Shown piece by piece: positions 267-26,834 of a DNA stretch of 57,993 nucleotides (positions within the stretch are counted from its first letter, which is position 1; each line of letters begins with the position of its first letter). The notes under the pieces were generated by a model. It searched no databases. It saw nothing but the letters and a program-made list of their open reading frames with translations, and was not told the origin of the DNA. The stretch is taken from positions 1 to 57,993 of the forward strand of contig JAXDOS010000150.1 in assembly GCA_034668785.1 (NCBI GenBank), in the 5' to 3' direction. This stretch comes from Alphaproteobacteria bacterium (GTDB lineage Bacteria > Pseudomonadota > Alphaproteobacteria > Rhizobiales > Xanthobacteraceae). The position numbers and the translations under genes were made by a program.

Positions 267-283
267 GATCCAGCGCGTTCCAT

Positions 284-1363: not shown

Positions 1364-1370
1364 CCACCGT

Positions 1371-2102: not shown

Positions 2103-2108
2103 GGAACC

Positions 2109-3569: not shown

Positions 3570-3573
3570 TCTT

Positions 3574-9466: not shown

Positions 9467-10317
9467 TTCTTCCCGCGATCCGCAGGAACGATGCGGCGCA
9501 GTGTATAGATGTCCGTGTCCGCAATTTCCCGTTTTAATACTTCGGCAAAAGGCCAGGGGTCCCACTGGGCGGCGATTAGACGACCGGTGATTCCGTCGCT
9601 TTCAGCGGACGCGAGATAGAGGCATAACTCGGCGCCCATATCGAGCGGAGTCCCGCCATCGGACTTGAGTTTCACCATGCGCTCATGGAGCGCCCTGCCA
9701 ACCTTTTCAGGACCGGCGGTGATCAATTGGTCCGTCAACCGCGTCGCGAGCGCGCCGGGCGCGATGGCATTGACGTCGATACCGTACTCCTTGAGCTCAA
9801 GCGCCAGCGTCTCAGTGAAGCGGACAATTGCCGCTTTAGAGGCCGCATACGCACTGATGCCGGGCAGGGGATTGGTTGCGCCGCCGCCCGACAGATTGAT
9901 GATTTTGCCATAGCGGCGCGGCTTAAACACCTCTACGGCCTTACGGCAGCAATAGACGGTCCCCGTAAGGTTGATGGCAATCGCCTTAACCCAATCGGCC
10001 CAATCGATTTGATCGATCGTGCCCATGGGTCCATAGATCCCCGCGTTGTTCACCACGATATCGAGATGTCCGAACTCGGCAACGGCGGCGGCAAACAATG
10101 CATCGACCTGGTGTTCGTCGGCGATATCGGCCACATGCGCACGAACCTGTGACGAGGGATAGGCGGCGGCCAGCCGAGCCCGTTGCGCTTCGAGTTCAGC
10201 CTGGCCGCGGGCGCAAATCATCACTGACGCTCCGGCCGCAGTGAACCGTTCCGCGATGACGGCGCCAAGACCGATGCTTGCGCCGGTGACGATTGCCGCC
10301 TTCCCATTCAGCTTCAT
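9451..10317 (-). CDS. classical short-chain dehydrogenase/reductase (SDR)
   Basis: The track ORF is trimmed to MKLNGKAAIVTGASIGLG. It has NNAG and the YAASKAA catalytic YxxxK. Its start overlaps the stop of the upstream dehydrogenase gene (10314..10317). Confidence 0.8.
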   Translation of the reverse strand: MKLNGKAAIVTGASIGLGAVIAERFTAAGASVMICARGQAELEAQRARLAAAYPSSQVRAHVADIADEHQVDALFAAAVAEFGHLDIVVNNAGIYGPMGTIDQIDWADWVKAIAINLTGTVYCCRKAVEVFKPRRYGKIINLSGGGATNPLPGISAYAASKAAIVRFTETLALELKEYGIDVNAIAPGALATRLTDQLITAGPEKVGRALHERMVKLKSDGGTPLDMGAELCLYLASAESDGITGRLIAAQWDPWPFAEVLKREIADTDIYTLRRIVPADRGKKWDKA

Positions 10318-11606
10318 GACATTCTTCCGACCGAAATCAACGACAAGCGCGGTTCGGCGGCAAATGCGCGATCGAGAAAGCGGCCAGGATCGAGAACGAT
10401 CCCGCCAGCCATGACATCGGCGATGTCTTTGGCTGCCAGCTTGCGAAACTCCGGCCATTCCGTCGCCACAACCAGTGCATCAGCACCTTGCGCTGCTGCC
10501 GTGCTGTTGGAAACAAGTGTCACGGCGCTGCGCAAATCGTCCGGCAAAGTTGTGACTTTCGGATCAAACGCGCGCACATGGGCTCCCGCGCCGACGAGCT
10601 CGCGAATAAGTTCGATGGAAAGCGAACGACGTAGTGTATTCGTCCCTGGCTTATAAGCGAGACCCAATACCCCAATAGTGCGGCCAGACAGGGGTTGCAG
10701 CATACGGCGTAGGTGCGCCAGCGCCCATTGACCGTGGGCCCGATTGCTGGCCAACACGCCGTTAATGACGGGCGTTGTGAGGCCACGGTCTTCTGCGAGA
10801 CTACGAAGGAAGTTGACGTCGCGTGCCAGGGTGCCGCCGGCAAACGCCGGACCAGGACGGATATAGGCATTTGGCCCCACCCTTGGGTCGCTGCGCAGCC
10901 CGGCTTCGACCTCGGCTGCATCTGCGCCCACCTGCTCACAAATCGTCGCAATCTCATTGGAAAAGGTAACAGAGACTGCCAAGAACGCATTCAGCGCGTG
11001 CTTCACCATTTCTGCGGATTCCACGGAAGTCCAGATCAGGTTGTTGCAAAAACGGCCGAGCAGACTACTGAGTGCCGGCCGCGCCTTCTCGTTTCGGATT
11101 CCGATGACGACCCGGCCGGGATCGCGAAAAACCTCAATGGCCCGGCCCAAGCGTAAATTCTCTGGCGAACAGGCAAACTCTACACGGCGTCCCCTTGCCT
11201 TCTGCGCGAACGTGCGCTCAAGGGCACCGATCGAACCTGCGGGAAGCTGAGCCGAAACCAGTACGATGGCGCCGTCACGCAAATGCTCAAAAACCGCTTC
11301 AACACGGTTTGTGACAGCAGCGACGTCAGCCTGATCGTCGTCGTCCACCGGCGTATCGTGACATACCCATATTATGTCAGCATCGCCCACGGCCCTGACG
11401 TCGGTGGTGAAGGCGAGGTTGCCGCTATCGAGGCCCGATCGGATTAACTCGGCCAGGCCGGGCTCAAATAATGGTGGTTCACCGCGCGACAAATCGGCAA
11501 TCCGGTCCGCGTTGTCGTCGATGCCGACCGTAACGACGCCGGCCGCCGCGGTGCAGGCGGCCGTCACCGTTCCGAGATGCCACAGGCCCAGGACTGCTAC
11601 CTTCAT
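10314..11606 (-). CDS. UDP-glucose/GDP-mannose 6-dehydrogenase family nucleotide-sugar dehydrogenase
   Basis: 430 aa. It has MKVAVLGLWHLGTVTAAC (N-terminal Rossmann motif), a central dimerisation helix region, and a C-terminal GLAYKPGTNTLRRS motif typical of the family. Confidence 0.85.
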   Translation of the reverse strand: MKVAVLGLWHLGTVTAACTAAAGVVTVGIDDNADRIADLSRGEPPLFEPGLAELIRSGLDSGNLAFTTDVRAVGDADIIWVCHDTPVDDDDQADVAAVTNRVEAVFEHLRDGAIVLVSAQLPAGSIGALERTFAQKARGRRVEFACSPENLRLGRAIEVFRDPGRVVIGIRNEKARPALSSLLGRFCNNLIWTSVESAEMVKHALNAFLAVSVTFSNEIATICEQVGADAAEVEAGLRSDPRVGPNAYIRPGPAFAGGTLARDVNFLRSLAEDRGLTTPVINGVLASNRAHGQWALAHLRRMLQPLSGRTIGVLGLAYKPGTNTLRRSLSIELIRELVGAGAHVRAFDPKVTTLPDDLRSAVTLVSNSTAAAQGADALVVATEWPEFRKLAAKDIADVMAGGIVLDPGRFLDRAFAAEPRLSLISVGRMS

Positions 11607-12559
11607 GCGCGCTGCTCGAAGATCCAGGGATTGGCGGTAAGCCAGTCGATAGTGCGCAGCAAGCTTTCCCTGATAGTCAGACGCGGTTTCCAGCCGAGCC
11701 CATGGATACGTTTTGTATCCAGAAAAATGAGCGGACTGTCCCCGATCCAGCCCCGCTCACCGCCGGAATAGGTCAATTGCGGGTTCACCCCCAGATGCTT
11801 CGTCATGCAGGCGATTGAGTCGTTCACCTCGATATACTCGTCATTGCCGAGATTCAGGATATTGACCTTGCCCTGCGGTGCCTCGATTGCCATCAACATC
11901 GCGTCGATGCAGTCCTGCACGTACATATATGATTTTTGCTGATGCCCATCGCCGAGCACGTGCAGTGTGCTGGGGTCGTCGCGCAGCCTTCGGTAAAAGT
12001 CAAAAACGTGGCCGTGCGTGTAGCGTTCGCCGAGGACCGAAACAAATCGGAAAATGAATGACTGGAATCCAAACCCTTCGCTGTAGGCCTGGAGGAGCCC
12101 TTCACCCGCCAGCTTGGAGGCGCCGTAAAGGGAGGTCTGCACTGGAAACGGCGCGTCTTCCGGCGTTGGAAAAACCTTAGGCTCGCCGTAGATCGACCCG
12201 GTCGAGGAAAAGGCGATTCGCTTCACTTGGTTGGCGCGCATCGCCTCCAGCACGTTGAAAGTCGCAATCGTATTCTGTTCGAGGTCGCGACGCGGGTGCT
12301 CGGTGCCGAAACGCACGTCGGCATTGGCAGCCAAGTGAAATACGAAATCGGCGCCTTGCAACGCTCGCGTCAGACTTTCGCTGTCGAGAACGTCGCCTTC
12401 AATGAGACGGAACTTTGGATTTGCCAAAGCGGATTCCAGGAAGCGAAGCACACCTGTCGACAGGTTGTCATAGCCAATCACACTTTCGCCACGCGTCAGT
12501 AGGCGATCGACGAGATTGCTTCCAATGAAGCCTGCCGCACCTGTGACGACATAAGTCAT
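11603..12559 (-). CDS. NAD-dependent epimerase/dehydratase (extended SDR)
   Basis: 318 aa. It has VVTGAAGFIGSNLVDRLL and YGASKLAGE (YxxxK). Its stop overlaps the start of the downstream dehydrogenase gene. Confidence 0.85.
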   Translation of the reverse strand: MTYVVTGAAGFIGSNLVDRLLTRGESVIGYDNLSTGVLRFLESALANPKFRLIEGDVLDSESLTRALQGADFVFHLAANADVRFGTEHPRRDLEQNTIATFNVLEAMRANQVKRIAFSSTGSIYGEPKVFPTPEDAPFPVQTSLYGASKLAGEGLLQAYSEGFGFQSFIFRFVSVLGERYTHGHVFDFYRRLRDDPSTLHVLGDGHQQKSYMYVQDCIDAMLMAIEAPQGKVNILNLGNDEYIEVNDSIACMTKHLGVNPQLTYSGGERGWIGDSPLIFLDTKRIHGLGWKPRLTIRESLLRTIDWLTANPWIFEQRA

Positions 12560-12616
12560 TCGTAACGAATCCTTTGATTCTAAATCGACCGAAGTTTGGT
12601 TACACGACCGAGCGGG

Positions 12617-13663
12617 TTAGATACACGGCGGTGAGTCCTTCGGCGGCGGTTCTACCTCTCGTACCGCCGGTTCGGTGCGGCGGGGCTGCCAGTTTCCCAG
12701 CAGGAACACGCCATTGATGGCTCCGGCGGCGACCAAGATAATGCCCCACTCGGCCGAGACAGCAAGCGCCTCGTTCATGGTCAGGCCCCCCGTCGTGCCG
12801 AGCGTCGCCGCCATGGCGAGCTCGCGACCACCCCATCCCATGTAGAGGAAAGGAAAGCTGTTGATCAATTGCAAGAGCGGAATGAAGGCGGCGACAAGCC
12901 ACAGATTTGTATCGAGCCCGGTGGCCAGCAACAACAAATAAAGCGTCGCCCAGGCAGAGAATAAGTTCAGGATGCCGATCAACATCTGGATCGTCGATGG
13001 CCACAAGCGCAAGAGGGATTGGTAGTTCGTGAATAGTCGGGCTAATCTGGTGAAAAGATCAAACGGCACCAAGAGGAGAATTCGAGGAACCGCAAGCAAA
13101 CAGGCAACCGCCGCGAGCAAGCCGCCGAACAAGGCGGCCTGCGGGACGATGATGTCGCCTCCAACTCCGGCGGACGCTTGTATTGGCAGTGCGGCGAGGC
13201 CAAAGATGCTTATCCATTGCACGCCCACCACGCGATCAAACAGCGTGTAACGCGTCGCATTGGTGATAGAGAGGTTTCCGAACAAGCGCAAAGCGGCGAT
13301 TTTGGCCACATCGCCAGTGAGACCGATGGGCGCGGCCGACGCAATGAAGCCTGAGCTGCAGGTCATCTTGAAAATCAATTTCCAGCTCGGCACAGCCGAC
13401 GGCAACTTGCCGCTTACCCGGCGGATGACCTGATGAAGCCGGAACGAATTGATGGGATATTGCATCCAAGGCGCGAGCAGCGCTAACGGCAGCCATCGAG
13501 AGTCCAACTTCTCCCAGACAGCGACCATCGCTTGCCAATCGAGCCGACGGTACATGATGGCCAAGCCAGCAGCAATGATCAGGCCACTTATTATCACCGA
13601 GAGTGCCTGGTATGGCAGGCGCGCGCGTCGCTGCCGAGATGCTTGCGCATCGGTTCGTTGCAT
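12617..13663 (-). CDS. UPF0104 / LPG-synthase-TM family integral membrane protein (second copy)
   Basis: The track ORF 12617..13861 is trimmed to the ATG at 13663..13661 (MQRTDAQASRQ...). That ATG overlaps the TGA of the upstream GT2 fusion by 1 nt. The protein is multi-TM with an INSFRLHQVIRR loop analogous to that in the 3574..4632 protein. Confidence 0.6.
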   Translation of the reverse strand: MQRTDAQASRQRRARLPYQALSVIISGLIIAAGLAIMYRRLDWQAMVAVWEKLDSRWLPLALLAPWMQYPINSFRLHQVIRRVSGKLPSAVPSWKLIFKMTCSSGFIASAAPIGLTGDVAKIAALRLFGNLSITNATRYTLFDRVVGVQWISIFGLAALPIQASAGVGGDIIVPQAALFGGLLAAVACLLAVPRILLLVPFDLFTRLARLFTNYQSLLRLWPSTIQMLIGILNLFSAWATLYLLLLATGLDTNLWLVAAFIPLLQLINSFPFLYMGWGGRELAMAATLGTTGGLTMNEALAVSAEWGIILVAAGAINGVFLLGNWQPRRTEPAVREVEPPPKDSPPCI

Positions 13664-15225
13664 CAGGCCCGTCCGGTCCCGATCGCCGAGAAGCGCAACT
13701 TCAGGATGGTCCAGACCCAGGTGAGGCCGTCCTTGCTCACACTGACTTTCTTTCCTTCCGCAAAGGAACGCGCCACATAATTGACCGGCAACTCCACCGG
13801 AACATATCCCTTGCGCACCAGCTTCATAACCAGCTCGATGTCGAGATCGAACCGATTGCACACCAGCTCGAGCCCGAACAGCGCGTCGCGGCGGAACACC
13901 TTGAACATTGTGAAGGGGTCACTCATACGCGTCCGCAATAAGAAGTTGATGAGCGACTTGAAGAACCAATGCCCCAAATTGAACATCGCAGCAGTCAGCG
14001 GAGCATCGTTGAATTTCCTCATCTTCCAGCCGCCCTGATGGCGCGAGCCGAGGATGAACATCGATTGCCAGGATACAATGGGCATCAGCAGGCCATCATA
14101 GTCGTCCAGGTCGTATTCGAGGTCGGCATCCTGGATCATGAGGATGTCGCCGGTGGCGACCTTGAGCCCCTCGCGCACGGCGTTGCCTTTGCCTTGAGGT
14201 TTTGCTTGCAGCACTATTCGCACATCCGGATAGCCGGCATAGCGCTGCACGATCTCCCTGCTGCCATCGGTTGAATTGCTCTCGACGACGACGATCTCCT
14301 TGCGCATGCCAGGCAGTTGCTTGGCAAGAAGAGCATCCATCATGACCTGAAACGTTGTCGCCTCATTGTAGACCGGAACGATAATCGACACGACGTTTTC
14401 GGGCCGCTTCGACTTGGCATGCGCCGTCACAATCGATGTTCCGGAGGGCAGCGGAAATTCACGGCTGCGGACATTTCGAGGGGACATCAGATGCAGCGTC
14501 TTGGCGGCCCCAAGCCACAACGACTCCTTACCGAGTTCCGACCGCTCCACCAGATTGTCGAGGGAATAACGGCGCCGCTCAGCCTGAAACCAGACGTGCT
14601 CGAATCCGGCGGACAGCAGAAAAAGGCTTAAGGTTTCCCGGGTGAAGTACCAGAGATTCGAAGATTGCCACTCATGCCAATTGCGGCCCATCAGACGCGC
14701 CTGCGTGCCATCGAGCAACGGCATGCTTAAGATGAGTGGGGCTTGCTCTGTTAGGTGACGGCGAATCTTCAGCAGTGCCGCCTGCGGATCCGAGACTTGC
14801 ATCAACGTTTCCGACACGATGGCGCCGTTGAACGTCCCACCCCAATCGGCCGGCCCGAAGTCGTCGTGGCCTACAATCCGGCCGATCGCGGTACCCCTTC
14901 GCTCCACCAACGGAATGATGCTGTTAGCGGATTCTGCAATGACGAGAACAGGACCGCTAAATGTCGTGGCTTTGAGAGCAGCCGCCAAATTCGTATGCTG
15001 TCCCTCGCTGCGAGCAGGCTTGCGGCCGGCCTCGGCAATGCCGGAGCCGATCTCGGTTGCGGCGAGACCCCGCCGCTTGCTGAATGTCAGCGCGCACCCG
15101 CCGCATTGATAGATACGAAATTGAGGGTTCCCAAAGACATAAGCTGCGTGGGTGCTCAAGCACAGTGGGCAGGAGAACTCGATCGGTTGGGCTGCCTGCG
15201 GTACCAATCGTAGCGGTTGGCTCAT
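13663..15225 (-). CDS. zinc-ribbon + methyltransferase-fold (degenerate SAM motif) + family-2 glycosyltransferase (DPM1/GtrB-like) fusion
   Basis: 520 aa. The N-terminus has CPLC...CGGC. The MT-fold segment has VLVIAESAN where GxGxG is expected, followed by IVSETLMQVSDP...LILSMP. The C-terminal GT2 has VSIIVPVYNE, VVESNSTDGS and MIQDADLEYD. Confidence 0.75.
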   Translation of the reverse strand: MSQPLRLVPQAAQPIEFSCPLCLSTHAAYVFGNPQFRIYQCGGCALTFSKRRGLAATEIGSGIAEAGRKPARSEGQHTNLAAALKATTFSGPVLVIAESANSIIPLVERRGTAIGRIVGHDDFGPADWGGTFNGAIVSETLMQVSDPQAALLKIRRHLTEQAPLILSMPLLDGTQARLMGRNWHEWQSSNLWYFTRETLSLFLLSAGFEHVWFQAERRRYSLDNLVERSELGKESLWLGAAKTLHLMSPRNVRSREFPLPSGTSIVTAHAKSKRPENVVSIIVPVYNEATTFQVMMDALLAKQLPGMRKEIVVVESNSTDGSREIVQRYAGYPDVRIVLQAKPQGKGNAVREGLKVATGDILMIQDADLEYDLDDYDGLLMPIVSWQSMFILGSRHQGGWKMRKFNDAPLTAAMFNLGHWFFKSLINFLLRTRMSDPFTMFKVFRRDALFGLELVCNRFDLDIELVMKLVRKGYVPVELPVNYVARSFAEGKKVSVSKDGLTWVWTILKLRFSAIGTGRA

Positions 15226-15290
15226 CTTGCACCGTTGCTCCCGCCCTCAGACTAAGACGCCGTTATGTCTGAATGTCTGTCGTCGGCAAG

Positions 15291-16157
15291 TCAATTCGGC
15301 TTCCGGGCATAGGCCACGAATTCGCCGATATTTACGGCGATCGGCTTGCGGCGCAGAGGCGACGGCACAAGCCACCGAAGCGCTTGATAACCCCGTTGCA
15401 AGAATGGGTTCGTCGCGGCGAGCTGATCGCTCAAATAATCCAGTGTCAGGAATTTGTGGGCGGTTTCCACTTTCACGTCGACGAAGCCGCAGCGTTTCAA
15501 TAGGTCCTCAATAGCCCGCCGCGAGAACAAAACGGTGTGCTGCATTGGTTGAAGCATCGGCCATTTCGATCTCATCAAGTAGCGCAAAAAATGGCCGGTG
15601 TCGGGCGTGCTTAATGCGAGCACCCCTCCGGGTACGAGGGCGTTGCGGATATCTTCCACGAACTTCACCGGATCCTGCACGTGCTCGATGATGTCAAACG
15701 CCGTTACGACATCGAACTTTGCTACATCCTGTCCAAGCAACGTATTTACGTCCCCGCAGGTGATTCTTTCTCGAATGTCAGGACGAGCCAACGAAATGGC
15801 AACGGTTGAAAATTCAACGCCGCTGGCCTCATAACCCTGCTCGACGGCGGCTTCGAGAAAGAATCCGGTGGCGCATCCGACATCGAGCAGCCGCTTGCCG
15901 GGAGCGAGCGTCTTGATCGCAGCAAGCCGCGGCAGGGCGGTAGCAATCTTCAGATCCCGAGACTTGGCATATTCTTTATAGACGCCCGCCGAATATTCCG
16001 TCTCAGCATATTGGCTCATGTCAGTCACAGCGGGCATCTTGGATTGGAAGATCGTGCCTGACGTGGGCTCAATATAATATTCTGCCCCACCCTTGCTACA
16101 ATAGAACTGAGCGGGACGGCCGTTTGTCGGCGCCAATACGGCTTTCGCGGAGATCAT
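15291..16157 (-). CDS. class I SAM-dependent methyltransferase
   Basis: 288 aa. It has RLLDVGCATGFFLE, DVVTAFDIIEHVQDP and LVPGGVLALSTPD. Its start overlaps the stop of the upstream SDR (16154..16157). Confidence 0.8.
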   Translation of the reverse strand: MISAKAVLAPTNGRPAQFYCSKGGAEYYIEPTSGTIFQSKMPAVTDMSQYAETEYSAGVYKEYAKSRDLKIATALPRLAAIKTLAPGKRLLDVGCATGFFLEAAVEQGYEASGVEFSTVAISLARPDIRERITCGDVNTLLGQDVAKFDVVTAFDIIEHVQDPVKFVEDIRNALVPGGVLALSTPDTGHFLRYLMRSKWPMLQPMQHTVLFSRRAIEDLLKRCGFVDVKVETAHKFLTLDYLSDQLAATNPFLQRGYQALRWLVPSPLRRKPIAVNIGEFVAYARKPN

Positions 16158-16978
16158 TGCTTGTCTCTGTTCCGGTACAAATCTTCTATACGTGCACGCA
16201 ATAGCCGATCCATGGGACCTTGTACAAGAGGACCAAATGCGTGAAGCGCCCAGGCCAGAAGTCCATAATATCGGGGCACGAAACGGACCGCTTTATTGTG
16301 TAAGATCGTATCAATTATGGCCTGCACGACTTCCTCAATTGGAATTGTCAATTCCGTTTCCTTCCGATGCGCGCGCATCCGGAAAGTTTCGTGATCGAAG
16401 AAGCTGGTTTCCACCCGGCCAGGGCAGACGACGTGAACATTCACACCGAAGCGCGCTAGCTCGATTGCAATGCACTTCGACCACGCCATCATCCCGTGCT
16501 TGGCGCCGCCATACACCGCATTCGGCGTGATCGTCATGGCCCCGGCGATCGAAGCAATGTTAACAATGTGACCACTACCCCGCTTAATCATTCCTTGGAG
16601 AAACGCTTTGGTGACGCGCAACGCGCCGCCGAAATTTACGTTGTACAGGCGTTCCATCTCGTCGGGGAATTCCTGCTCGAAAGTTAGGTAGGTCGCGAAC
16701 CCGGCATTATTAACTAGAATATCAGGCGGGCCGTAGTCGGCGATCACCTGCCGGCTTGCCGCTGCGACGTCCGCAGGCACTCCAATGTCGCAAACATAGG
16801 CGCCGAAGCGAGGGTTCCGCCCCCCGAATTGCTTGGCGACGTCTTCCAGGCGCTCGACCTGATCGGCAAGGACAACGACTTTCGCTTCACGGCGAAAAAG
16901 CTCCTGCGCAAGCGCCAGCCCGATGCCTGAAGTGCCGCCGGTGATTACAACGAGTTTATTTGAGAAATACTCTTCAAT
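16154..16978 (-). CDS. classical SDR oxidoreductase; the 5' end is uncertain (no canonical start codon upstream of the Rossmann motif)
   Basis: The track ORF starts at GTG 16780. The open frame continues upstream and encodes IEEYFSNKLVVITGGTSGIGLALAQ, an intact TGxxxGxG motif. The in-frame stop is at about 17003..17005. The only plausible initiator is ATT at 16978..16976, 5 nt after GGAGGTG. NNAG and YGGAKHG are present downstream. Confidence 0.7.
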   Translation of the reverse strand: MEEYFSNKLVVITGGTSGIGLALAQELFRREAKVVVLADQVERLEDVAKQFGGRNPRFGAYVCDIGVPADVAAASRQVIADYGPPDILVNNAGFATYLTFEQEFPDEMERLYNVNFGGALRVTKAFLQGMIKRGSGHIVNIASIAGAMTITPNAVYGGAKHGMMAWSKCIAIELARFGVNVHVVCPGRVETSFFDHETFRMRAHRKETELTIPIEEVVQAIIDTILHNKAVRFVPRYYGLLAWALHAFGPLVQGPMDRLLRARIEDLYRNRDKQ

Positions 16979-17055
16979 ATTACACCTCCACGGGAGTTGT
17001 TTGCAATTTTCTTTGGAAATGGGGAGTTAGCATCTAGACACAATTGGTAATACCG

Positions 17056-19113
17056 TCAAGAAGCCACCGGTTTCGCTAATATCGTTCCCGGCACATCTTG
17101 CGTGCCCATGTCTTCTGACGACGGCGAGCGAAGGCCGCTCCAGGCAGCAATCGACAAAACCGCGGCAGCGACGAGCAGGAAATAGAGCGACGTCAAATAA
17201 GGCGAATGTCCGGAAAAAATCGACTGAATCCACGTGGCTTCGACAATTACCAACATTGTTATGCGCACGAAGATCGTGGCCCATAGCGCCAAAGCAAATA
17301 CGTAGCAGGGATTGAAGATAGCCGTTCGCCAATAAAACAGGGTCGAAACGAAGAAACCAATGATGCCTAAGGCAAGGACCGGGATGAAGACATAACTGTA
17401 GTGGGTGACGGCCTCCTCACGGAGGCCTTGGGCCGCGTTTTCCGCCAATGTAGCCTGGCTGCCGGGATCGGCCACTACCTCTGTCACGTCAAAATTGACC
17501 CGTCCAGAGCCAAGATCGAAACCAATGGGAGCTCGAAGATCTGCGAGCTTCCGTTCAACCACATCGCCTTCTGTGGTCTCAAATCGCAAGATGCAGTCTT
17601 CGCTGCAGTGGGTGTAAATAGAAAATCGCTGGCGTGTCGCTTCCGGATCCTTAAAGCCGGACGCGATGTCGGGGCTGTCGATGCGTTCAAATCGCAGGTC
17701 GGCGGCTGGAGCGACTGCTACTGTCATCCAGCTACGACCCGATTTGTAATACCAGCCGAGGAACCTGTAGCTCGCCGCGCGCGAAGGAATATCGACGGAG
17801 GCCGTGTGCGGCGGATAATTCAAGAAGCGAAGATGTGTCCCGAGACGTGCTTCATCACCGGAACTCGGATCCAGATGGATGGATGGCTGCAACATGACAA
17901 GTAAGTCGAGTACCTTGAGATAGCCTTGCGGAATTTGCGCAAACTGCTCCCGGTATACCTGGGGGATTTCGGCGATAAATTGAGGATTGCATTCCAGGTC
18001 GCCTCGGCTGCACGCTCCGGTAATTTCGTCGGCGACCCGCTCGAAGAATGCGGAAGCCTTGGCAGGGGACGTGTACTGACCCGCCGCCGCCGCTGCCTCG
18101 CGCAGCGCCCACAGGAAAACACTCGATCCGATATCGCCGCAACTCGTTGGCTGAAGCGGGCAGCTAATGCCGTCGTAGGCTTTACCGAGGTCTCCGTCGA
18201 GATAGATAGCCACGGACTTGAAGCTCGGGCTCACTTCATAGACCCGCTCGCGGGCGGTACGCGTAATCGGCACGAAGAGGCGATTTCCTCCGGAGAGCAC
18301 GCTGTTGATGGCCCCTAAGGCCCGTTGAAAATTCGCTTCCTTAGAATCGACGCTGACGAACTTTCCGTAAACCCACCAATTGACTGATCGAAACGCGATC
18401 TGTGTGCCCGCAAAAACAACAACGAACACTAGGCACGCCCCGGCGAACTCACGAACTGTCCGTTCACGCGTCGCCCGAAGCCCGCCGGCGGTCAGCAGGA
18501 TAGCGATCGCAGGCACCATCCAGACGCCGTCCTCTCGCGTAAGCCAAAACCATCCGAAAACGGCGCCACTGAGTGCACCGTAGAATGCACGCTCACGCCA
18601 GCCGGACGCCGACAAGCAGGCCCACGCCAGCGCTCCTACGAAGACTAAAATCTGCCCATAATAGATAGACTCGCGAATGATGCGCAGCAAAAACGGACCA
18701 ATGGCAATGGGGTGCCATAGCAGCAGGACAAAGAGCAGGCCCGACAGCACAAATGACTTCATGAACTTATGCGCGATCGCGACGAAGAACGCGATCGCCC
18801 CGCAATGAAACAGCGCATGCGACAACGAGACCGAAATCCCGAGCCAATTGGTGAGCGCGAGGAACGCCGGATATCCGGGTCCCTTCATTAGCGTGAATTG
18901 GTCGTATGGCCCGAGCCACCGGCCTTCTGCCAGATAGCGGCCAATTGTCATGAATAAGGTATCGTCGTGCGGGAAACTGGAGTTCACCGCCAAAGGCGTA
19001 TGCACGTACATGAGGACATAAATAAACCCCATGCCGATAATGAAGAGGCGGAAATACGTTGCGGAAAGCAAGCGAAAAGAGCTTGGAGACCCAGCGATCG
19101 ACTTTCCTGGCAT
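17056..19113 (-). CDS. large polytopic membrane protein, GT-C-like (ArnT/PMT-type) glycosyltransferase candidate
   Basis: 685 aa. It has about 9 N-terminal TM segments with FPHDDTLFM in the first predicted loop, a roughly 330-aa soluble middle domain and 3 C-terminal TM segments. The fold assignment is by architecture only. Confidence 0.45.
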   Translation of the reverse strand: MPGKSIAGSPSSFRLLSATYFRLFIIGMGFIYVLMYVHTPLAVNSSFPHDDTLFMTIGRYLAEGRWLGPYDQFTLMKGPGYPAFLALTNWLGISVSLSHALFHCGAIAFFVAIAHKFMKSFVLSGLLFVLLLWHPIAIGPFLLRIIRESIYYGQILVFVGALAWACLSASGWRERAFYGALSGAVFGWFWLTREDGVWMVPAIAILLTAGGLRATRERTVREFAGACLVFVVVFAGTQIAFRSVNWWVYGKFVSVDSKEANFQRALGAINSVLSGGNRLFVPITRTARERVYEVSPSFKSVAIYLDGDLGKAYDGISCPLQPTSCGDIGSSVFLWALREAAAAAGQYTSPAKASAFFERVADEITGACSRGDLECNPQFIAEIPQVYREQFAQIPQGYLKVLDLLVMLQPSIHLDPSSGDEARLGTHLRFLNYPPHTASVDIPSRAASYRFLGWYYKSGRSWMTVAVAPAADLRFERIDSPDIASGFKDPEATRQRFSIYTHCSEDCILRFETTEGDVVERKLADLRAPIGFDLGSGRVNFDVTEVVADPGSQATLAENAAQGLREEAVTHYSYVFIPVLALGIIGFFVSTLFYWRTAIFNPCYVFALALWATIFVRITMLVIVEATWIQSIFSGHSPYLTSLYFLLVAAAVLSIAAWSGLRSPSSEDMGTQDVPGTILAKPVAS

Positions 19114-19488
19114 ATAGCTCTAGTCCTTCGCCTGCAGAACGAGGCCTTTTAGGGTGCGCCCCGAGAAGTTACAAGTTGATGATCGACGGGCGGGCGCTAG
19201 GTGTCGGTCCTTCATGCGCAATTCCACGCATGGGCGTGAGCTAGCTTTCGCTCACGCATTGAAAAAGATATATTGAGCGAACACGCAATGCCGCGAATTC
19301 AATAACATGATGCCACAATCACTCCATCATTGCCATCTTTTATGGGAGAGGTGACTTAAACGTATGCGCGGTCTAACGTCTCTAGGAGTTCGTGGAGGAA
19401 AATTCCCAGAACTTTAATCCGCTCACCATGCACGGTCGCACGCAGTCACGGCGTGATGTCAGATTGCGGCCTTGAAGAGGAGTTCGCC

Positions 19489-21000
19489 ATGGCTGGTTGG
19501 ACAGTTAACGGGAACGACACTAATTTTTCGCTGTCGGGCAAAGTCGGCATTGGGACAACTACCCCGGCTCGGAAGCTTGAGGTTTCCGGCGATGATGTGA
19601 AGATAAGGGTCACCAACACGGTGTCGTCAAATATGGTGGAGTTCGGCTGGGATACCGGCAATCTGGCTGCTCTTTTTCAGGCAACAAACGGGAGCGACAT
19701 CAAGTTCTATAATGGACAATATGCGCTTACGATGCTCGGTAGCAATGGCAACGTCGGCATCGGGACCGGGGCACCAAGCGCTCAGCTACACATCAATTTA
19801 CCAACCCCCGCCACGCCGACAAATGATGTGCGACTCATCCAAAGATTTACGAGACCCCAGGATGTCGGCACTAAATGGGGCGGGGCTTTCGATATACTCT
19901 TGGGCAGTTACGGTACGGACGCGGCATCCAGAAGTCGTGTTGATTTCAAACTAGCAAATACAGAAACTAATCTACCCGACACAACTGTAATAACCATGAA
20001 CGCTAATGGTCATGTCGGCATTGGGACGACGATACCGCAGTCTCTTCTCCATATTGAAGGTCCTGGTTCTGCGGGCGTTATCAACTACCCCGCTGTAGCA
20101 AAAGTCGTTCATGGAAGTTCCACAACTCCAATCACAAGCAGTGTGGGTTCTTCGTTCGCTGTGATTAGGGAAGAAGCTGTTCCAGGAGGTTTAGGTCAAG
20201 GTGATGCGGCCATCTACGCACAAAATATCGGGCATGGTGGGCAGGGCGGCGCACCCGGAGACGGGATGCCAGTTGGCGTTGCAGCGTATGTGTACACCGC
20301 TGCGGATGGCGAGAGTGATTGCACAGCTCTTGTAGGCGTGGCCCGCACGGATAGTGCGGCCAACAATGCTCGTGCGGCTTTTGGTGCGTTCGTTCAAGCA
20401 GAAGCCACCGTTGGAAACAACATGGGCGCGATTGCCTGTGAAAGCCAAACGGTCAACAGCACGGGATTTAATTACAGATATAGCCCAGCCCAACCTACGA
20501 CAAACCTGATGGTCGGCTTCGATATTGGTTATGGGGGTACGGGCGGCACGACCGGCAGCGCGGGTGTGATGCTGCGAGCCTCACCTGGTTTGTGGGATGT
20601 TGGTTATGCTGTGATGGAATCTACGGTTGCCACCGCTGCCTTCATATCCCCCGGGTTCAAGGTCGATGCCTTGGGCAATCAACGGGCCTTGAGTAATACA
20701 ACGACATCCGACGAGCGGCTTAAGCATGATATAGTGCCGCTTAATGATGGAGCGCTCGAGAAGATAGTTGGAATACAGCCGGTTTCATTTAGGTTCAACC
20801 AAGAGCGCGATCCTTCCGATCGTTTGAGGACGCATGTCATTGGACAAGACGTTCTTCCGGTAATACCGGAGGCAGTTGTCCTCGACTCAGATGGCTTCTA
20901 TTCGGTTGATGATGGCGCAATTTTGGCCTACGCGATCAAAGCTATTCAGGAACTTACAGCGAGAGTAAGGATGCTCGAAGCATCAAGGGGATTACAGTGA
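19489..21000 (+). CDS. phage tail-fibre-like protein with a C-terminal Peptidase_S74 intramolecular chaperone (autoproteolytic) domain
   Basis: The track ORF 19453..21000 is trimmed to the ATG at 19489, preceded by GAGGAG. The motif G(K/N/H)VGIGT..P....L(E/H)(V/I) recurs three times in the N-terminal part. The C-terminus reads TTTSDERLKHDIVPL...IQPVSFRFN...HVIGQDVLPVIPEAV...VDDGAILAYAIKAIQEL, which matches the endosialidase/T5-fibre chaperone domain (about 20707..20997). No signal peptide is visible. Confidence 0.7.
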   Translation: MAGWTVNGNDTNFSLSGKVGIGTTTPARKLEVSGDDVKIRVTNTVSSNMVEFGWDTGNLAALFQATNGSDIKFYNGQYALTMLGSNGNVGIGTGAPSAQLHINLPTPATPTNDVRLIQRFTRPQDVGTKWGGAFDILLGSYGTDAASRSRVDFKLANTETNLPDTTVITMNANGHVGIGTTIPQSLLHIEGPGSAGVINYPAVAKVVHGSSTTPITSSVGSSFAVIREEAVPGGLGQGDAAIYAQNIGHGGQGGAPGDGMPVGVAAYVYTAADGESDCTALVGVARTDSAANNARAAFGAFVQAEATVGNNMGAIACESQTVNSTGFNYRYSPAQPTTNLMVGFDIGYGGTGGTTGSAGVMLRASPGLWDVGYAVMESTVATAAFISPGFKVDALGNQRALSNTTTSDERLKHDIVPLNDGALEKIVGIQPVSFRFNQERDPSDRLRTHVIGQDVLPVIPEAVVLDSDGFYSVDDGAILAYAIKAIQELTARVRMLEASRGLQ

Positions 21001-21068
21001 CACCTTGGTCCATCGGCTGCGTTTCCAGAGCCGAATATATCTTAACGGTGCCGCCATCGGCGCGTGCC

Positions 21069-21860
21069 TCATCCGAGGTGGGAGGGCGCAATAATAATAA
21101 TGTTGGAACTAAAAGGTCCTAGGGGCAAACCGGCGTATCGAAGGGTGGGGCGAGACCCCAGAGGCCATTCGCGGGCCAATTGATTCTTGCTGACAAAATC
21201 CAAATTCTCGATCTTGCTCCAATGGTGATATCCGGTCCCAGCGAGCGCCTTTCGAAAAAGCTGCGGTATGTAATGCAGTAATGGAATTCCGGTGTGATGC
21301 TCGATCGGGAACCACCCATTCGGGACGATAACAAAAATGGAACGGGCTACACGCATTGCTTCGGAGAAAAAGAACAGGCGTTGATCGGGGCCTCCGACAT
21401 GCTCCAGGACGGCGTTGGAATAGGCGATGTCGAAATGTCTGTCAGAAAACGGCAGAGGTTGGCCAGGCGTAAGCTGGGCAACTTTCACCTTTGGATACTC
21501 GCGCGAAATACTCGATCCATCCCCGATGATCCCGCAAGTGATGTTCTCGGGATACGGATAATTTTTCTCGAGTATATTTGCCTCGCGGGTGTCGTGATCG
21601 GAGGCACCGATGTCAAGGATTGTTGTAGAAGACGTCGGCTTCATCTCCGCGACAAACCTTGCATAGATGCGGTTCCGGGCGACGAGTGCAAGGCGCCTCT
21701 GAAGCGCAATCTTGCCCGCCCCTTCGTAATAGATAACGTCTGACGCCTTGCTCATATTGACCGTTGTAAGCCACGTTATTTGCATGAGTCCAGCGCGTTT
21801 TAGATTGAATTGCTTCCCCGCAGTCACCCAACTCGTCCAAACCCCCATTCCTGAGAACAC
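21069..21860 (-). CDS. class I SAM-dependent methyltransferase (start uncertain; ATG at 21785 or 21755 more likely)
   Basis: It has TILDIGASDHD, HFDIAYSNAVLEHVGGPDQ and RSIFVIVPN (Methyltransf_11-like). The first 25-35 codons of the maximal ORF look non-coding. Confidence 0.7.
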   Translation of the reverse strand: MFSGMGVWTSWVTAGKQFNLKRAGLMQITWLTTVNMSKASDVIYYEGAGKIALQRRLALVARNRIYARFVAEMKPTSSTTILDIGASDHDTREANILEKNYPYPENITCGIIGDGSSISREYPKVKVAQLTPGQPLPFSDRHFDIAYSNAVLEHVGGPDQRLFFFSEAMRVARSIFVIVPNGWFPIEHHTGIPLLHYIPQLFRKALAGTGYHHWSKIENLDFVSKNQLAREWPLGSRPTLRYAGLPLGPFSSNIIIIAPSHLG

Positions 21861-21892
21861 GAATTCTTGCGAGATCGCGGCTTTACGGATAA

Positions 21893-23596
21893 TTGGACAT
21901 GCGCGCCGACATGTTGGCGGGTGGTGGTCGTAAGGGGGCAGTCATGGGCGTCGATAAAATTCTTGGCTGGCGGTTTCCGCGAGGCTGCATCCCTGTCATC
22001 ACGATTGCTGCATTCGTGCTGTCGGGTTGCGTATGGGTGCTACGAGACCAGAGGGTTTGGTCGTATGACCAGGCGTATTATGGTCACTGGACTCTTCAAC
22101 TGTGGCATGCGGCTCAGACCGGACCGGCGGAGTGGTTGGAGACGATGGCCAACGCCCTTGGACAGATGCCGCCAATGCTGGTGTGGCTCGGCCAGGGTGT
22201 CTTGCCGGTGCGATACATCACCGGAGACACCGAATCTGCGCTGCCGCTGCTGACAATCCTCCTCGCCGCCGCAACACTTGCCCTGGTCTATCTCCTCGCG
22301 CGCCGTCTCGGCGCTGGTCGAATCGGAAGCCTGGCCGCGGTCATTGCATGCGCGGGGAGCCCGCTCTTTCTTGCATTCTCGCTTCTCTATCTGACCGAGA
22401 TGGCCCAAGCATTTTCCGTGGCGGTCACGATCTTCGTGGCCTGGCGTGCCGAGCGGCGATCGCTAACGCGGACACTGGCATTGTGTTTGTCGGCAACAGC
22501 TCTTGGTTTTCTCGCCAAGTCATCAAGCATCGTATTCTTGGTGCCTGTGTTGACCTATGTCGCCGTGGCGCTTTTCATTTCACGGGGCCGGCCGAAGTCG
22601 CGCACCAGCATCGCCGACATCTTATTGGTTGCCATGGCTGTCATGCTCTTAGCCGCGACCGCGACTTGGTACGCATTCAACTGGGAATCCATGGTTCAGC
22701 ATTTCGTCGGGGCGACGACCGGAGAGATGGCGCTCAACTATGGCTCTCGGGTCGAGCTTATCAAAAAGTTGAACTACTGGATCAGCTGGCTGGATCTATC
22801 CTTGTCGCCGATTAATTATGTATCGATCTGCATCGGCGTCCTGATCGTTGTCGCCATCGGCGCCGCTCTTGTCAGAGTGTTCTTACATTCGCCGTCCCAG
22901 TGGGCGCTGGCTGCCGTCGAGAATGGTACCTTGTTTGGTCTCGCCTTAGCGGGAATGCTGGTTGTCGTTATTCTCGCCTATTCGCTCCAGATGAACGAAG
23001 ATCCGCGGTTTCTAGCTCCTGCCATGCCGGTGGTAGCCGCACTGATCGGGTGGAGCTTCTCCATGATCGGCAGCAGGCTGGTCGCCGCAGTTGCAGTCCT
23101 TGGGCTGGCGGCGAATGCGGTGGCTGTCCATGCCTATGCGCACAACATCAATCCGTTTGGTCTCACGGTCCATCCCTGGCTGTTGCCAGTGGATGCCGTG
23201 GGCGTCGATAAGGCGCTCCTGACGCATGCGGTCCGTAGCACCTGCCGGAAGGATACCGCAAATTACGCGACCGTCATCGCGGTGAACTACACTCCGCTCA
23301 ACGCAAATTCCGCTAGCTTCTATTCGTTCAAGCAACGCGAAACATTAGCATATTTCTGCAACTACAGAAGCTTGAGCTTCTCAGTGCCAGAGTTCCAGCG
23401 CGCGCTCGACGAAATAATCGCGATGGCGCCAGCCTACGTGGTGACGGTCGCGCCCGAAAAGCAGTCGCCCGGCGATTTCGCAAATATTCACTCTCGTGCG
23501 CTGGCCGAATATTTGGCTAAAGATCCGCTATTTGAGCTGTCGCCGGATTCCGGCGACTATCTGCAGATCTATCGCAACAAGCGGGTCTTGCCGTGA
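21893..23596 (+). CDS. GT-C fold membrane glycosyltransferase candidate (family 39/83-like, ArnT/PMT type)
   Basis: 567 aa with at least 10 hydrophobic segments. WSYDQAYYGHW lies in the first loop, in the position of the DE/DD catalytic motif of GT-C enzymes. The C-terminal soluble domain is about 150 aa. The start may be the internal ATG at 21944. Confidence 0.55.
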   Translation: MDMRADMLAGGGRKGAVMGVDKILGWRFPRGCIPVITIAAFVLSGCVWVLRDQRVWSYDQAYYGHWTLQLWHAAQTGPAEWLETMANALGQMPPMLVWLGQGVLPVRYITGDTESALPLLTILLAAATLALVYLLARRLGAGRIGSLAAVIACAGSPLFLAFSLLYLTEMAQAFSVAVTIFVAWRAERRSLTRTLALCLSATALGFLAKSSSIVFLVPVLTYVAVALFISRGRPKSRTSIADILLVAMAVMLLAATATWYAFNWESMVQHFVGATTGEMALNYGSRVELIKKLNYWISWLDLSLSPINYVSICIGVLIVVAIGAALVRVFLHSPSQWALAAVENGTLFGLALAGMLVVVILAYSLQMNEDPRFLAPAMPVVAALIGWSFSMIGSRLVAAVAVLGLAANAVAVHAYAHNINPFGLTVHPWLLPVDAVGVDKALLTHAVRSTCRKDTANYATVIAVNYTPLNANSASFYSFKQRETLAYFCNYRSLSFSVPEFQRALDEIIAMAPAYVVTVAPEKQSPGDFANIHSRALAEYLAKDPLFELSPDSGDYLQIYRNKRVLP

Positions 23597-23772
23597 TGGC
23601 GTTGCGCCTCATCGGCGTCGCGCAAGCCTTCGTCGTAACCCGTCGCGCAAACAGATCACAGGCAATCAGAAGTCGTCGGGATGGGTTTATGCCCCACCGG
23701 CGACCTCTCCGCGGCACCGCTGTTACAGATGCCTTGCTGAGGACGGTGCGCGCGCATCCTCCACCTACACGA

Positions 23773-25223: not shown

Positions 25224-25310
25224 AGCTAAAGTTTGCAGCATCGGATATTTTGGGGCACTGGAGGATATGAGAAGTCGGCAACTTACGTCTGGTTTGGCGG
25301 CTGCTGTTAT

Positions 25311-26834
25311 ATGCGCTCAATTCTCAGTCGCCATATCGAAGCACCCAGGGCTACTTTCGTGATGTCGGCACGCGAAAAACGCGATCATGTTCCGCTCCCC
25401 GGGGATGGGTGTGGGCTTGAGCTAGAATATCCTGCACGTCTCGTCGAGCCGTCCGCCTGGTTGGCGCACGTACCCTTCGCCATGTGGCTGGTCGGCGCGC
25501 TCAAGCCGCGCATGATAGTCGAACTCGGCGTCCACACCGGCAATTCCTACTGCGCCTTTCTGCAAGCGGCGCAAACGCTGGGTCTCGATACGCGGTGTTT
25601 TGGCGTCGATCATTGGTATGGCGACGAACACGCCGGTCACTATGGAGATGAGATTTACCAAGAGTTCAGGGCCTACCACGATCGCCGATATGGGACCTTT
25701 TCCACCCTGCTTCGCAGTTCCTTTGAAGAGGCACTTCCATATTTCTCAGACGGCAGCGTCGACCTGCTCCATATCGACGGTTTTCACACTGCCGAAGCCG
25801 TTTCGGCGGACTTCAAGTCATGGTTCCCGAAAGTGAGTTCCCGCGGGGTCGCGCTGTTCCACGACAGTAACGTCCGGGAGCGCGGCTTCGGTATTTGGCA
25901 GTTTTGGGAGGAACTCTCATCCCGCTACCCGCATTTCGAGTTCCTCCACTCACACGGCCTTGGTGTTGTCTACCTAGGCACCGAGCCCTTGACCGGACCA
26001 CTTAAGGCGCTGTTTGCAACAAAGACTGATGCCGAAAATGAGCGCGTCCGTGGCTACTTCGCCCGGCTTGGAACTTCGGTCGCCGAACGTCGCGCGGGGT
26101 TGACGCTCGCCGCCAACGTCGATGCAACCAAAGGGCGGGTCGCGGAGCTGGAGAGGGAACTTGCGGCTGTCCGGGCAGAGTTGGCCAGGACCAACACAGA
26201 TACCGACGCGCTGAAGGCGGAATTAGAAGCAAAAATTCAGGCCGTGCAGTCGGATGCCGCGCGAGAACAAGCGCAGGCTGAGGCGGTCCGCGCGATGCTG
26301 GATCAGACTAAAAGGCAGCTTGCTGATTTGAATGCGCAACTTTCGAATGCTGGTGCGCTCACGGATGGCCTGGAGGCAAAACTTCACGCTGCCCAGGGCG
26401 AGGTGGCACGCGCAAATTCCAATGCAGCCGCGCTTAAGAAGAATCTGGAGGAGAAGCTTCACGCCGCTCAAGATGAGGTGGCACGCGCATATTCCAGTGC
26501 CGACGCATTTAAGAAGGACCTGGAGGAGAAGCTTCACGCCGCTCAAGGCGAGGCGGCACGCGCTCATTCCAGTGCCGACGCGGTCAAAAATGAGCTAGAG
26601 GCAAAACTTCGTGCCGCCACTTTGCAGTTACAGATACAGGCCTCCCTGGTACGTCAGCGCATTGGAGTAGCTGCTCGGCTGCAACAAGAATTGCTCGTGG
26701 CCAAAAGCGACAAATGCTCTTACGAACTGCGGCTTCAAGAAATTCTGCAATCGACAACCTGGCGGTATACCGGACCTTTTCGCCGAGCAGTCATCTTGCT
26801 GAGACGTTTGCTCCCGCCGAATCCGCTATTTTAA
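25311..26834 (+). CDS. class I methyltransferase (Methyltransf_24/CmcI-like) fused to a long C-terminal coiled coil
   Basis: The track ORF 25233..26834 probably starts at ATG 25311 or 25362. The N-terminal domain has MIVELGVHTGNSYCAF, GVDHW, VDLLHIDGFHTAEAV and GVALFHD. From about residue 290 onward the sequence is Ala/Glu/Lys/Leu-rich with heptad character and includes 25-aa repeats. The C-terminus reads STTWRYTGPFRRAVILLRRLLP. Confidence 0.75.
   Translation: MRSILSRHIEAPRATFVMSAREKRDHVPLPGDGCGLELEYPARLVEPSAWLAHVPFAMWLVGALKPRMIVELGVHTGNSYCAFLQAAQTLGLDTRCFGVDHWYGDEHAGHYGDEIYQEFRAYHDRRYGTFSTLLRSSFEEALPYFSDGSVDLLHIDGFHTAEAVSADFKSWFPKVSSRGVALFHDSNVRERGFGIWQFWEELSSRYPHFEFLHSHGLGVVYLGTEPLTGPLKALFATKTDAENERVRGYFARLGTSVAERRAGLTLAANVDATKGRVAELERELAAVRAELARTNTDTDALKAELEAKIQAVQSDAAREQAQAEAVRAMLDQTKRQLADLNAQLSNAGALTDGLEAKLHAAQGEVARANSNAAALKKNLEEKLHAAQDEVARAYSSADAFKKDLEEKLHAAQGEAARAHSSADAVKNELEAKLRAATLQLQIQASLVRQRIGVAARLQQELLVAKSDKCSYELRLQEILQSTTWRYTGPFRRAVILLRRLLPPNPLF
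26370..26618 (+). repeat. in-frame 75-bp tandem repeat, 3 full copies plus a partial fourth, inside the coiled-coil region
   Basis: Copies start at 26370, 26445 and 26520, with a partial copy from 26595. They encode LEAKLHAAQGEVARANSNAAALKKN / LEEKLHAAQDEVARAYSSADAFKKD / LEEKLHAAQGEAARAHSSADAVKNE / LEAKLRAA. Copies 2 and 3 are nearly identical at the DNA level over the first roughly 45 nt. Confidence 0.9.

Follow-up and report, generated by a model that had tools for sequence, protein, structure and literature searches.

The contest between bacteria and phages is fought mainly at O-antigen loci, and the locus described here raises the question of why a gene for a phage receptor-binding fibre should lie among the genes that build such a glycan. 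The gene (the fibre gene) occupies positions 19489..21000 of a stretch of 57,993 nucleotides from an uncultured alphaproteobacterium of the family Xanthobacteraceae (contig JAXDOS010000150.1 of assembly GCA_034668785.1), which we analysed over its whole length and refer to as the window. A polysaccharide locus of the ATP-binding-cassette (ABC) transporter type, ~42 kb long (~284 to 42439), extends on both sides of it. Our analyses suggest that it corresponds to the distal two-thirds of a tail-fibre or receptor-binding gene from a phage, which was inserted laterally and antisense between a native methyltransferase gene and its GT-C glycosyltransferase (GT) partner in a mosaic O-polysaccharide locus, and which varies between strains; we put the probability of this reading at about 0.9. 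The case is thus one of a phage receptor-binding gene inside an O-antigen locus for which relatives provide a natural series (intact, decayed and deleted), and it shows that such loci can capture phage genes by recombination, besides sugar genes.

Anatomy and kinship of the fibre protein

The gene and its parts are as follows.

19489..21000, + strand: fibre gene, 503 codons plus stop, comprising shaft repeats, tip domain and S74 chaperone (list of open reading frames (ORFs), Pfam, PHROG, Foldseek)
19477..19482, + strand: ribosome-binding site GAGGAG, 6 nt ahead of ATG 19489 (read from the sequence)
19537..19584, + strand: capping-loop repeat 1, amino acids (aa) 17-32, GKVGIGTTTPARKLEV (regular expression on the protein; DNA repeat family D1; Bd3182 capping-loop motif)
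19747..19794, + strand: capping-loop repeat 2, aa 87-102, GNVGIGTGAPSAQLHI (regular expression on the protein; DNA repeat family D1)
20008..20055, + strand: capping-loop repeat 3, aa 174-189, GHVGIGTTIPQSLLHI (regular expression on the protein; DNA repeat family D1; alignment to 8ojn)
20074..20706, + strand: tip domain, aa 196-406, a rare module (exhaustive HMMER search, alignment, AlphaFold2 (AF2))
20707..20997, + strand: Peptidase_S74 chaperone, aa 407-503 (Pfam; model confidence; Foldseek; ~57% identity to the C-terminal domain of the homologue P0004)

The forward-strand ORF that ends at 21000 could start at GTG 19453, which lies just downstream of a stop codon, or at ATG 19489. Because GAGGAG precedes the ATG, the 503-aa protein is the likely product. 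Its N-terminus is not hydrophobic: within the first 40 aa, hydropathy over 10-residue stretches peaks at 0.86, versus more than 2.4 in homologues with signal peptides, and no signal-peptide remnant was found in any frame upstream of the gene. Approximately half of the 120 listed homologues have signal-peptide-like N-termini.

The C-terminal domain provided the clearest assignment. Pfam PF13884 (Peptidase_S74) matched aa 407-463 (E=1.2e-11), covering positions 1-57 of the 58-position profile and scoring 45.1 bits where the cut-off is 22, and it was the sole Pfam match to the protein at E<=1. The match begins exactly at the serine that follows TTT in TTTSDERLK, and the Ser-Lys motif S407-D-E-R-L-K412 is intact (Ser407 at 20707-20709 and Lys412 at 20722-20724); SDxxxK is the catalytic motif of the S74 domain in Bdellovibrio MAT fibres and in endosialidase (PMC10769870). 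In the first of two AF2 models, the domain reached a predicted local distance difference test (pLDDT) score of 88-97 over aa 410-500, with a C-terminal helix at aa 475-502. Its fold matched the MyRF ICA domain and the K1F endosialidase chaperone; among the PDB entries, Foldseek gave 7dc3 (TM-target 0.55-0.58) and 3gud (0.52-0.53) with a probability of 0.99-1.0, and the fold matched 3gw6 as well. Cleavage between T406 and S407 would, by computation, yield a mature chain of 41.3 kDa and a 97-aa fragment of 10.8 kDa.

The shaft (aa 1-195) has only 16 residues ahead of its first repeat and holds three copies of GxVGIGTxxPxxxL, which are detectable at the DNA level too. Repeats of the type GxVG(I/V)GTxxPxxxLH(V/I) are the "capping loops" of trimeric beta-helical fibres in Bdellovibrio MAT fibres and MyRF (PMC10769870), and the protein sequence aligns with the Bd3182 beta-helix in PDB entry 8ojn and with the tail fibre 8jov. 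Up to this point the original prediction, which had been made from the sequence alone, agrees closely with what we found: it had described a 503-aa protein lacking a signal peptide, three N-terminal repeats (they begin at aa 17, 87 and 174), and an S74 domain with the cleavage serine at 20707..20709 and a C-terminal part of roughly 97 residues, whose length is indeed 97 aa.

The tip is far more unusual. When 1.84 billion representative proteins were searched exhaustively with HMMER, only 20 relatives were returned at E<=0.001. The resulting alignment (A2) comprised 22 sequences including the query, P0003 and P0004; S74 was present in 10 of the 22, and many matched PHROG tail-fibre families. 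In a further alignment (A3), D277, N323, G343 and G372 are conserved, and E229 and D370 are near-invariant. The tip is unrelated by sequence to endosialidase or to any solved structure, and its profile found no relative among PDB sequences. A carbohydrate-binding-module-like identity was considered and rejected, as the best match in the PDB-profile search (E=0.15) was not significant. Neither Pfam nor NCBIfam revealed a glycosidase, lyase or esterase family in the protein, the tip being modelled at pLDDT <50, and a catalytic role through the conserved E229, D277 and D370 may still exist. Two AF2 monomer models were built, the first from 45 sequences (mean pLDDT 63) and the second from the tip relatives (pLDDT 51). 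Neither resolved aa 200-400 (pLDDT <50), as would be expected of an intertwined trimer. The usable parts were the S74 domain and portions of the shaft, whose leading PDB matches were Bd2133, Bd1334 and Bd3182. With ~20 detectable relatives, none of which has a solved structure, the tip is a candidate for a new glycan-binding module.

Searches for homologues pointed consistently to phages. The PHROG scan matched 23 families at E<=0.1, of which 15 were tail or tail-fibre families, led by phrog_1980 (aa 150-498, E=5.6e-19). Foldseek against BFVD returned 365 viral proteins at E<=0.001, with "intramolecular chaperone auto-processing domain" proteins from uncultured phages at their head, while the top PDB matches were Bdellovibrio MAT fibres (8ond, 8oml, 8onc and 8ojn), the MyRF ICA domain and the K1F chaperone. 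The closest full-length homologue, P0003, is only 33% identical. P0004 is the closest relative in tip and S74 domain together, with a C-terminal domain ~57% identical to that of the fibre protein; it is encoded on a small contig (L001), two small genes upstream of a tail protein (phrog_8763/1640). P0243, another relative of the tip, comes from a contig that resembles a podovirus and carries Bbp16 and T7_gp14 genes. Among GenBank phages, Thermus phage phiFa gave the best match with its distal tail fibre, which is 31% identical over 58% of the query. From the phage-like contigs of its homologues and the weak identity to its nearest relatives, the fibre gene is read as phage-derived and without a close cultured relative.

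By domain, motif and predicted fold, the protein belongs to the S74/ICA-domain fibre proteins. It shares the C-terminal S74 domain, the SDxxxK motif, the fold and the absence of a signal peptide with phage fibres such as K1F endosialidase, the T5 L-shaped fibre pb1 and the GA-1 neck appendage; it differs from them in that its gene lies outside any phage genome or tail module and in that the N-terminal part of its nearest homologues is missing. With the MAT fibres of the S74 subgroup (e.g., Bd3182), it has in common that it is encoded by a cell, has a capping-loop shaft and an S74 terminus, and gives a Foldseek match. MAT fibres are ~1,000 aa long and carry a signal peptide and an invariant, beta-rich N-terminal anchor of 130 aa (Caulton et al. 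2024, PMC10769870). The fibre protein, with 503 aa and from a glycan locus of a non-predatory alphaproteobacterium, has neither. We therefore rejected a MAT-fibre identity, although the predicted trimer does have the shaft motif. Cell-encoded S74 fibres are not new in themselves, because bacterial chromosomes commonly carry orphan S74 genes. Among the "tail fiber domain-containing" genes of this sort, P0066 of Microcystis aeruginosa, which lies in a DUF6603 cluster, and P0039 combine S74 with GxVGIGT amid cellular genes. None of these orphan proteins closely shares the tip, and the best full-length identity is 33%.

Comparison with related loci

The neighbours on which this comparison relies are the following.

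17056..19113, - strand: gene for a 685-aa polytopic membrane protein, GT-C/PMT-like (no Pfam match; 95% identical in L003)
19186..21865: 2,680-bp segment missing in L003, containing the fibre and methyltransferase genes (blastn and reading of the junction, where L003 has only "CG")
21069..21785, - strand: S-adenosylmethionine (SAM) methyltransferase-like gene, 238 aa (weak Pfam Methyltransf_11; convergent relative to the fibre gene and in the same direction as the 685-aa gene)
21893..23596, + strand: PMT_2-type GT-C glycosyltransferase gene (Pfam PMT_2/PMT; found also in L003 and L012; on the far side of the indel)

We found L003 by scanning species-representative genomes with the 685-aa neighbour, and further loci through homologues of the methyltransferase. 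L003 belongs to the metagenome-assembled genome "Alphaproteobacteria bacterium BP_693" (JAXDOR010000205.1), and its version of the 685-aa protein is 95% identical in amino acids. According to blastn it is collinear with the window on both sides of the fibre gene, with 98.1% identity over 7060-19185 and 94.5% over 21866-23615, and lacks precisely what lies between. Reading of the junction and a repeat scan showed no target-site duplication, terminal inverted repeat or integrase at 19186/21865. L012, a 78-kb Joint Genome Institute (JGI) contig from a different sample, shows 100% identity with the window across 20.7 kb, the fibre gene included. In L011 the order of genes is the same, the methyltransferase protein is 89-91% identical, and a 484-bp gap stands in place of the fibre gene. 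L009 and L010 have a methyltransferase 85% identical in a rearranged context without the fibre gene; L009 encodes at the equivalent position a 619-aa protein with a weak PMT match, whose homology to the 685-aa protein is not confirmed. Metagenome contigs scanned with the 685-aa neighbour gave distant loci only, at <=49% identity over most of the protein (64% over one 47-residue fragment), and no fibre gene was found on them.

The gap in L011 is not empty. It holds a fibre-gene stub of ~120 bp (L011 3585-3705, reverse complement, matching window 19604-19727; tblastn E=1.6e-5). A direct piece, which translates in frame as LRVTNTASSNAVELNRDTGNLAAIF, corresponds to IRVTNTVSSNMVEFGWDTGNLAALF of the window (codons 39-63), and is followed immediately by an inverted piece, ATNGTDLKFYNGQYP against ATNGSDIKFYNGQYA (codons 65-79). 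This arrangement, with its breakpoint at codon 64, suggests an inversion plus deletion rather than a simple deletion. The fibre gene is thus strain-variable: it is intact in the window and L012, decayed in L011 and deleted in L003.

In L011, and also in the distant L031, the methyltransferase gene lies directly upstream of the 685-like gene and in the same direction. On this comparison of gene order, the native unit is the methyltransferase gene followed by the GT-C-like gene, with the fibre gene wedged between them on the opposite strand; the fibre gene is therefore a foreign antisense insert in a native pair. L003 most parsimoniously lost the methyltransferase and fibre genes together. Because close relatives lack the fibre gene or retain only a decayed stub, it is not part of the sugar pathway. 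Two further observations were made on L003. It carries 606 extra bp (L003 7576-8181) between window positions 23615 and 23616, in the convergent intergenic region after the GT-C gene, and its first part (1-3775) has no similarity to the window beyond 27413. The locus is thus a mosaic, even when very close relatives are compared.

These comparisons also bear on the setting that the original prediction had given to the gene. Polysaccharide genes do flank it on both sides, and the statement that no other phage gene is recognisable holds in that ORFs of 180 aa or more in the 58 kb gave no Pfam family of phage type (a few Pfam-negative ORFs were left out of the PHROG scan). The window contains no tRNA, and a further 10 kb to the right, reached through the 78-kb JGI contig, added catabolic and Tad-pilus genes and no phage genes. 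Accordingly, the gene does not lie at the edge of a degraded prophage, as the original prediction had considered: its flanks are native and collinear. A tail fibre of a resident prophage was rejected on the same results (no phage Pfam families in 58 + 10 kb, no tRNA, and flanks collinear with L003, which lacks the gene). Among the relatives compared, only the identical contig L012 has the gene intact at this position. As for patchy base composition, the values reported earlier were nearly right (0.433 against ~0.43 at 19921..19980, and 0.650 against ~0.67 at 20221..20280), but they are no signal, since both fall inside the spread of 60-nt samples in the window (mean 0.569, standard deviation 0.073). 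A better compositional indicator, which also supports a phage origin, is the low GC content at third codon positions (0.51 in the fibre gene, 0.59-0.80 in nine others).

Probable selection on the reading frame and possible roles

We then asked whether the frame has been maintained. Synonymous divergence (dS) of the flanks is 0.39-0.43 between the window and L011, and 0.11 between the window and L003; for the stub in L011 (40 codons) it is ~0.6, a noisy value. If a single ancestral insertion is assumed, the copy in the window has stayed open over ~0.2 neutral substitutions per site. In simulations of neutral decay with substitutions only, the ORF survived in 0.04% of cases at 0.2 substitutions per site, in 2% at 0.1, and in 12% at 0.055. 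Because the 1.5-kb frame stayed open, with the catalytic motif intact and a good ribosome-binding site, the ORF is probably under purifying selection in the window lineage, and some function is likely.

What this function might be can be outlined from the behaviour of related fibres. The protein would be made in the cytoplasm and trimerise with the aid of its C-terminal domain; self-cleavage after Thr406 would then release the 10.8-kDa fragment and leave a mature chain of 41 kDa, as is established for S74 fibres (PMC10769870). Because there is no export signal, it would gain access to a cell surface only after lysis, like the fibres of phages, tailocins and gene transfer agents (GTAs). It may persist as a reserve receptor-binding protein for a phage-like particle that is encoded at another site in the genome, is set free by lysis and uses the fibre in trans. 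On such a particle the fibre would bind a surface glycan, and the position of its gene beside the glycan genes would cause receptor and binder to be inherited together. By analogy with known systems we regard a role in trans on a particle of this kind as the most coherent of the functional readings, yet as a tentative proposal that falls short of even odds. It appears rather unlikely that all of this holds jointly, that is, that a functional receptor-binding fibre of a GTA, tailocin or prophage elsewhere has stayed physically linked to the O-polysaccharide genes making its receptor, with the consequence that exchange of the locus transfers binder and receptor as a unit.

[quoted passage not shown] Its tail-fibre gene rcc00171 lies directly downstream of exopolysaccharide genes and encodes a DUF2793 protein without S74 (PMC5026251), and the head-spike genes rcc01079/rcc01080 lie immediately upstream of capsule-receptor genes (PMC5026251, PMC10218006). 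The rcc00171 and head-spike proteins both bind the capsule that the genes beside them produce, and the head-spike fibre is anchored by only ~10 N-terminal residues (PMC5026251, PMC10218006). The likeness is one of arrangement only: these are alphaproteobacterial orphan fibre genes of phage type that lie away from any phage cluster and beside polysaccharide genes, and their products have no export signal and depend on lysis for release. The differences are that DUF2793 (PF10983) was not found here (at Pfam E<=1 the protein matched S74 only), that there is no CtrA box, and that close relatives dispense with the fibre gene. If the proposal is true, the RcGTA-style placement of a binder next to receptor genes would extend to S74-type fibres and to another alphaproteobacterial lineage, and would suggest a general kin-targeting linkage. 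If the protein binds the glycan of the neighbouring locus, it would provide a second, independent linkage of a receptor to a phage-like binder after RcGTA, with a bearing on how GTAs or tailocins keep their specificity matched to kin. As things stand, it is an ordinary though well documented orphan S74 fibre gene.

Several results weigh against a functional fibre of this kind. The N-terminus is shorter than in all three closest homologues (P0003 has 276 more residues, and the gene on L001 at least 70 more), and the protein begins 3 residues before a Trp that is internal in these homologues. It therefore matches the distal portion of a fibre, without any recognisable virion-attachment domain, and may represent a truncated capture. 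The gene was lost twice among the few relatives available, and is thus dispensable. No sigma-70 promoter consensus was found in the 375 bp upstream, nor a CtrA box (TTAA-N7-TTAA), which we sought as a mark of a GTA regulon and whose count across the window equals chance. No particle genes were shown in the DNA seen, namely the 58-kb window and 10 kb to its right. Finally, the argument for selection is only as good as its two foundations, a stub of 120 bp and the premise that a single insertion took place in an ancestor. Three related observations on sequence ends may be added here. In P0002, a signal peptide immediately precedes the equivalent conserved Trp. P0004 (381 aa; L001 1-1727) is a truncated gene call, as the ORF upstream ends at a run of N (XXXX), and the true protein is longer. 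This upstream ORF contains more GxVGIGT units and the phage-fibre N-terminal motif GDILYRG..W..L..G..GQVL.

The same results would fit a different account, in which the gene is an inert captured fragment: the 3' part of a phage fibre gene brought into a hypervariable locus by illegitimate recombination, with no role in the cell and with a fortuitous ATG and ribosome-binding site. The shortened N-terminus, the antisense position within a native pair and the absence or decay of the gene in relatives are all in its favour. So are its third-position GC content (GC3), at 0.51 the lowest of ten genes sampled (0.59-0.80 in the other nine), the scans for promoter and terminator consensus around the gene, in which nothing exceeded shuffled expectation, and the lack of any NCBIfam or PADLOC match for the fibre protein or its immediate neighbours. 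On the other hand, the 1,509-nt frame is open and its catalytic motif intact although the stub in L011 implies an insertion at least as old as the flank dS of ~0.4; even with indels left aside, neutral openness would have a probability of ~4e-4 for 0.2 substitutions per site and of 0.02 for 0.1; and a canonical GAGGAG stands at the correct spacing. We consider inert capture unlikely on balance, but a serious contender. Seroconverting phages (P22-type gtr) have a tail-spike or tail-fibre gene adjoining genes that modify O-antigen, and the fibre gene might likewise be the last remnant of a seroconverting prophage, given that it lies among GT-C, polyprenyl-phosphate-sugar synthase and flippase-like genes resembling Gtr modules and that its homologues have phage-type neighbourhoods. 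Nevertheless, no integrase, att site, tRNA or other phage gene was seen in the 58 kb and the 10 kb to the right, the flanking genes are collinear in relatives without the fibre gene, and the methyltransferase/GT-C pairing reaches into a distant lineage. This account is largely refuted and very improbable.

The original prediction had favoured a domesticated, cell-encoded fibre that would recognise or trim the glycan of the locus; such a fibre, similar to MAT fibres or tailspike depolymerases, would be displayed or secreted. Our results do not support it: the gene is an antisense insert that relatives lack or hold as a stub, the tip shows no detectable hydrolase or lyase domain, and an export route is wanting, as a signal peptide is missing and the N-terminus is too short to hold the 130-aa anchor found in all 21 MATs (PMC10769870). 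The gene furthermore has no synteny in relatives with the same cluster, splits a native pair and stands outside any operon. In favour of such a fibre are the shaft motif and S74 chaperone, as in S74-type MAT fibres, the placement of an apparently selected ORF in a glycan locus, and the frequency of cell-encoded orphan S74 genes, such as P0039 between genes for an RF3-type GTPase and a MiaB-like radical-SAM protein; we judge it improbable. A cytoplasmic location, a trimerisation and chaperone module kept without the attachment end, a strain-variable spread typical of defence genes and an ORF under selection would also suit an anti-phage decoy or poison subunit, a fragment that trimerises or competes with the fibres of infecting phages and renders their progeny defective or retargeted. 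PADLOC matched neither the fibre protein nor its neighbours, no partner defence genes lie nearby, and we found no precedent in the literature searched, so that a decoy seems quite improbable.

Expression signals and the surrounding locus

The hairpins in both intergenic regions beside the fibre gene are marginal (z = -2.0 and -2.5). Upstream of the gene and just within the edge of the indel, two neighbouring hairpins occur at 19222-19263 (fold z-score -2.45), one with an 8-bp stem, GCGTGAGC/GCTCACGC.

The polysaccharide locus encodes a GDP-mannose dehydratase, a UDP-sugar dehydrogenase, epimerases, glycosyltransferases of types GT2, GT4 and GT-C, many methyltransferases, flippase-like proteins and a Wzm/Wzt-type ABC-2 transporter. 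The methyltransferase beside the fibre gene has 389 homologues, mostly in polysaccharide contexts. Two paralogous pairs (2109-4632 and 12617-15225) combine a methyltransferase-GT2 protein, similar to polyprenyl-phosphate sugar synthases, with a flippase-like LPG_synthase_TM protein. Both pairs, together with the GT-C gene at 21893-23596 and the 685-aa gene, resemble Gtr-style periplasmic glycan-modification modules, and the fibre gene lies between the 685-aa gene (possibly GT-C-like) and the PMT_2-type gene at 21893-23596. Further along (25233-26834, + strand), a protein of 533 aa begins with a Methyltransf_24 domain and also contains a long coiled coil with Filament-, TACC- and SMC-like matches. 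The coiled coil includes a 75-bp (25-aa) tandem repeat in 3.3 copies (26369-26617). The protein resembles the WbdD-type coiled-coil "ruler" terminators of ABC-transporter-dependent O-polysaccharides, and its number of repeats could tune chain length.

The lower-GC glycan island ends at ~42.4-45 kb and is followed by aromatic-catabolism genes. Two paralogous LigXa-like Rieske oxygenase genes (47090-48376 and 54687-55970) are accompanied by HpcH aldolase, amidohydrolase, IclR and cupin genes, in a region with a GC content of 0.60-0.66. Past the right end of the window, the 78-kb JGI contig (L017 10668-18766) continues after aromatic catabolism with a Tad/Flp pilus cluster that includes TadB/C, a CpaF-like ATPase, a secretin and RcpC.

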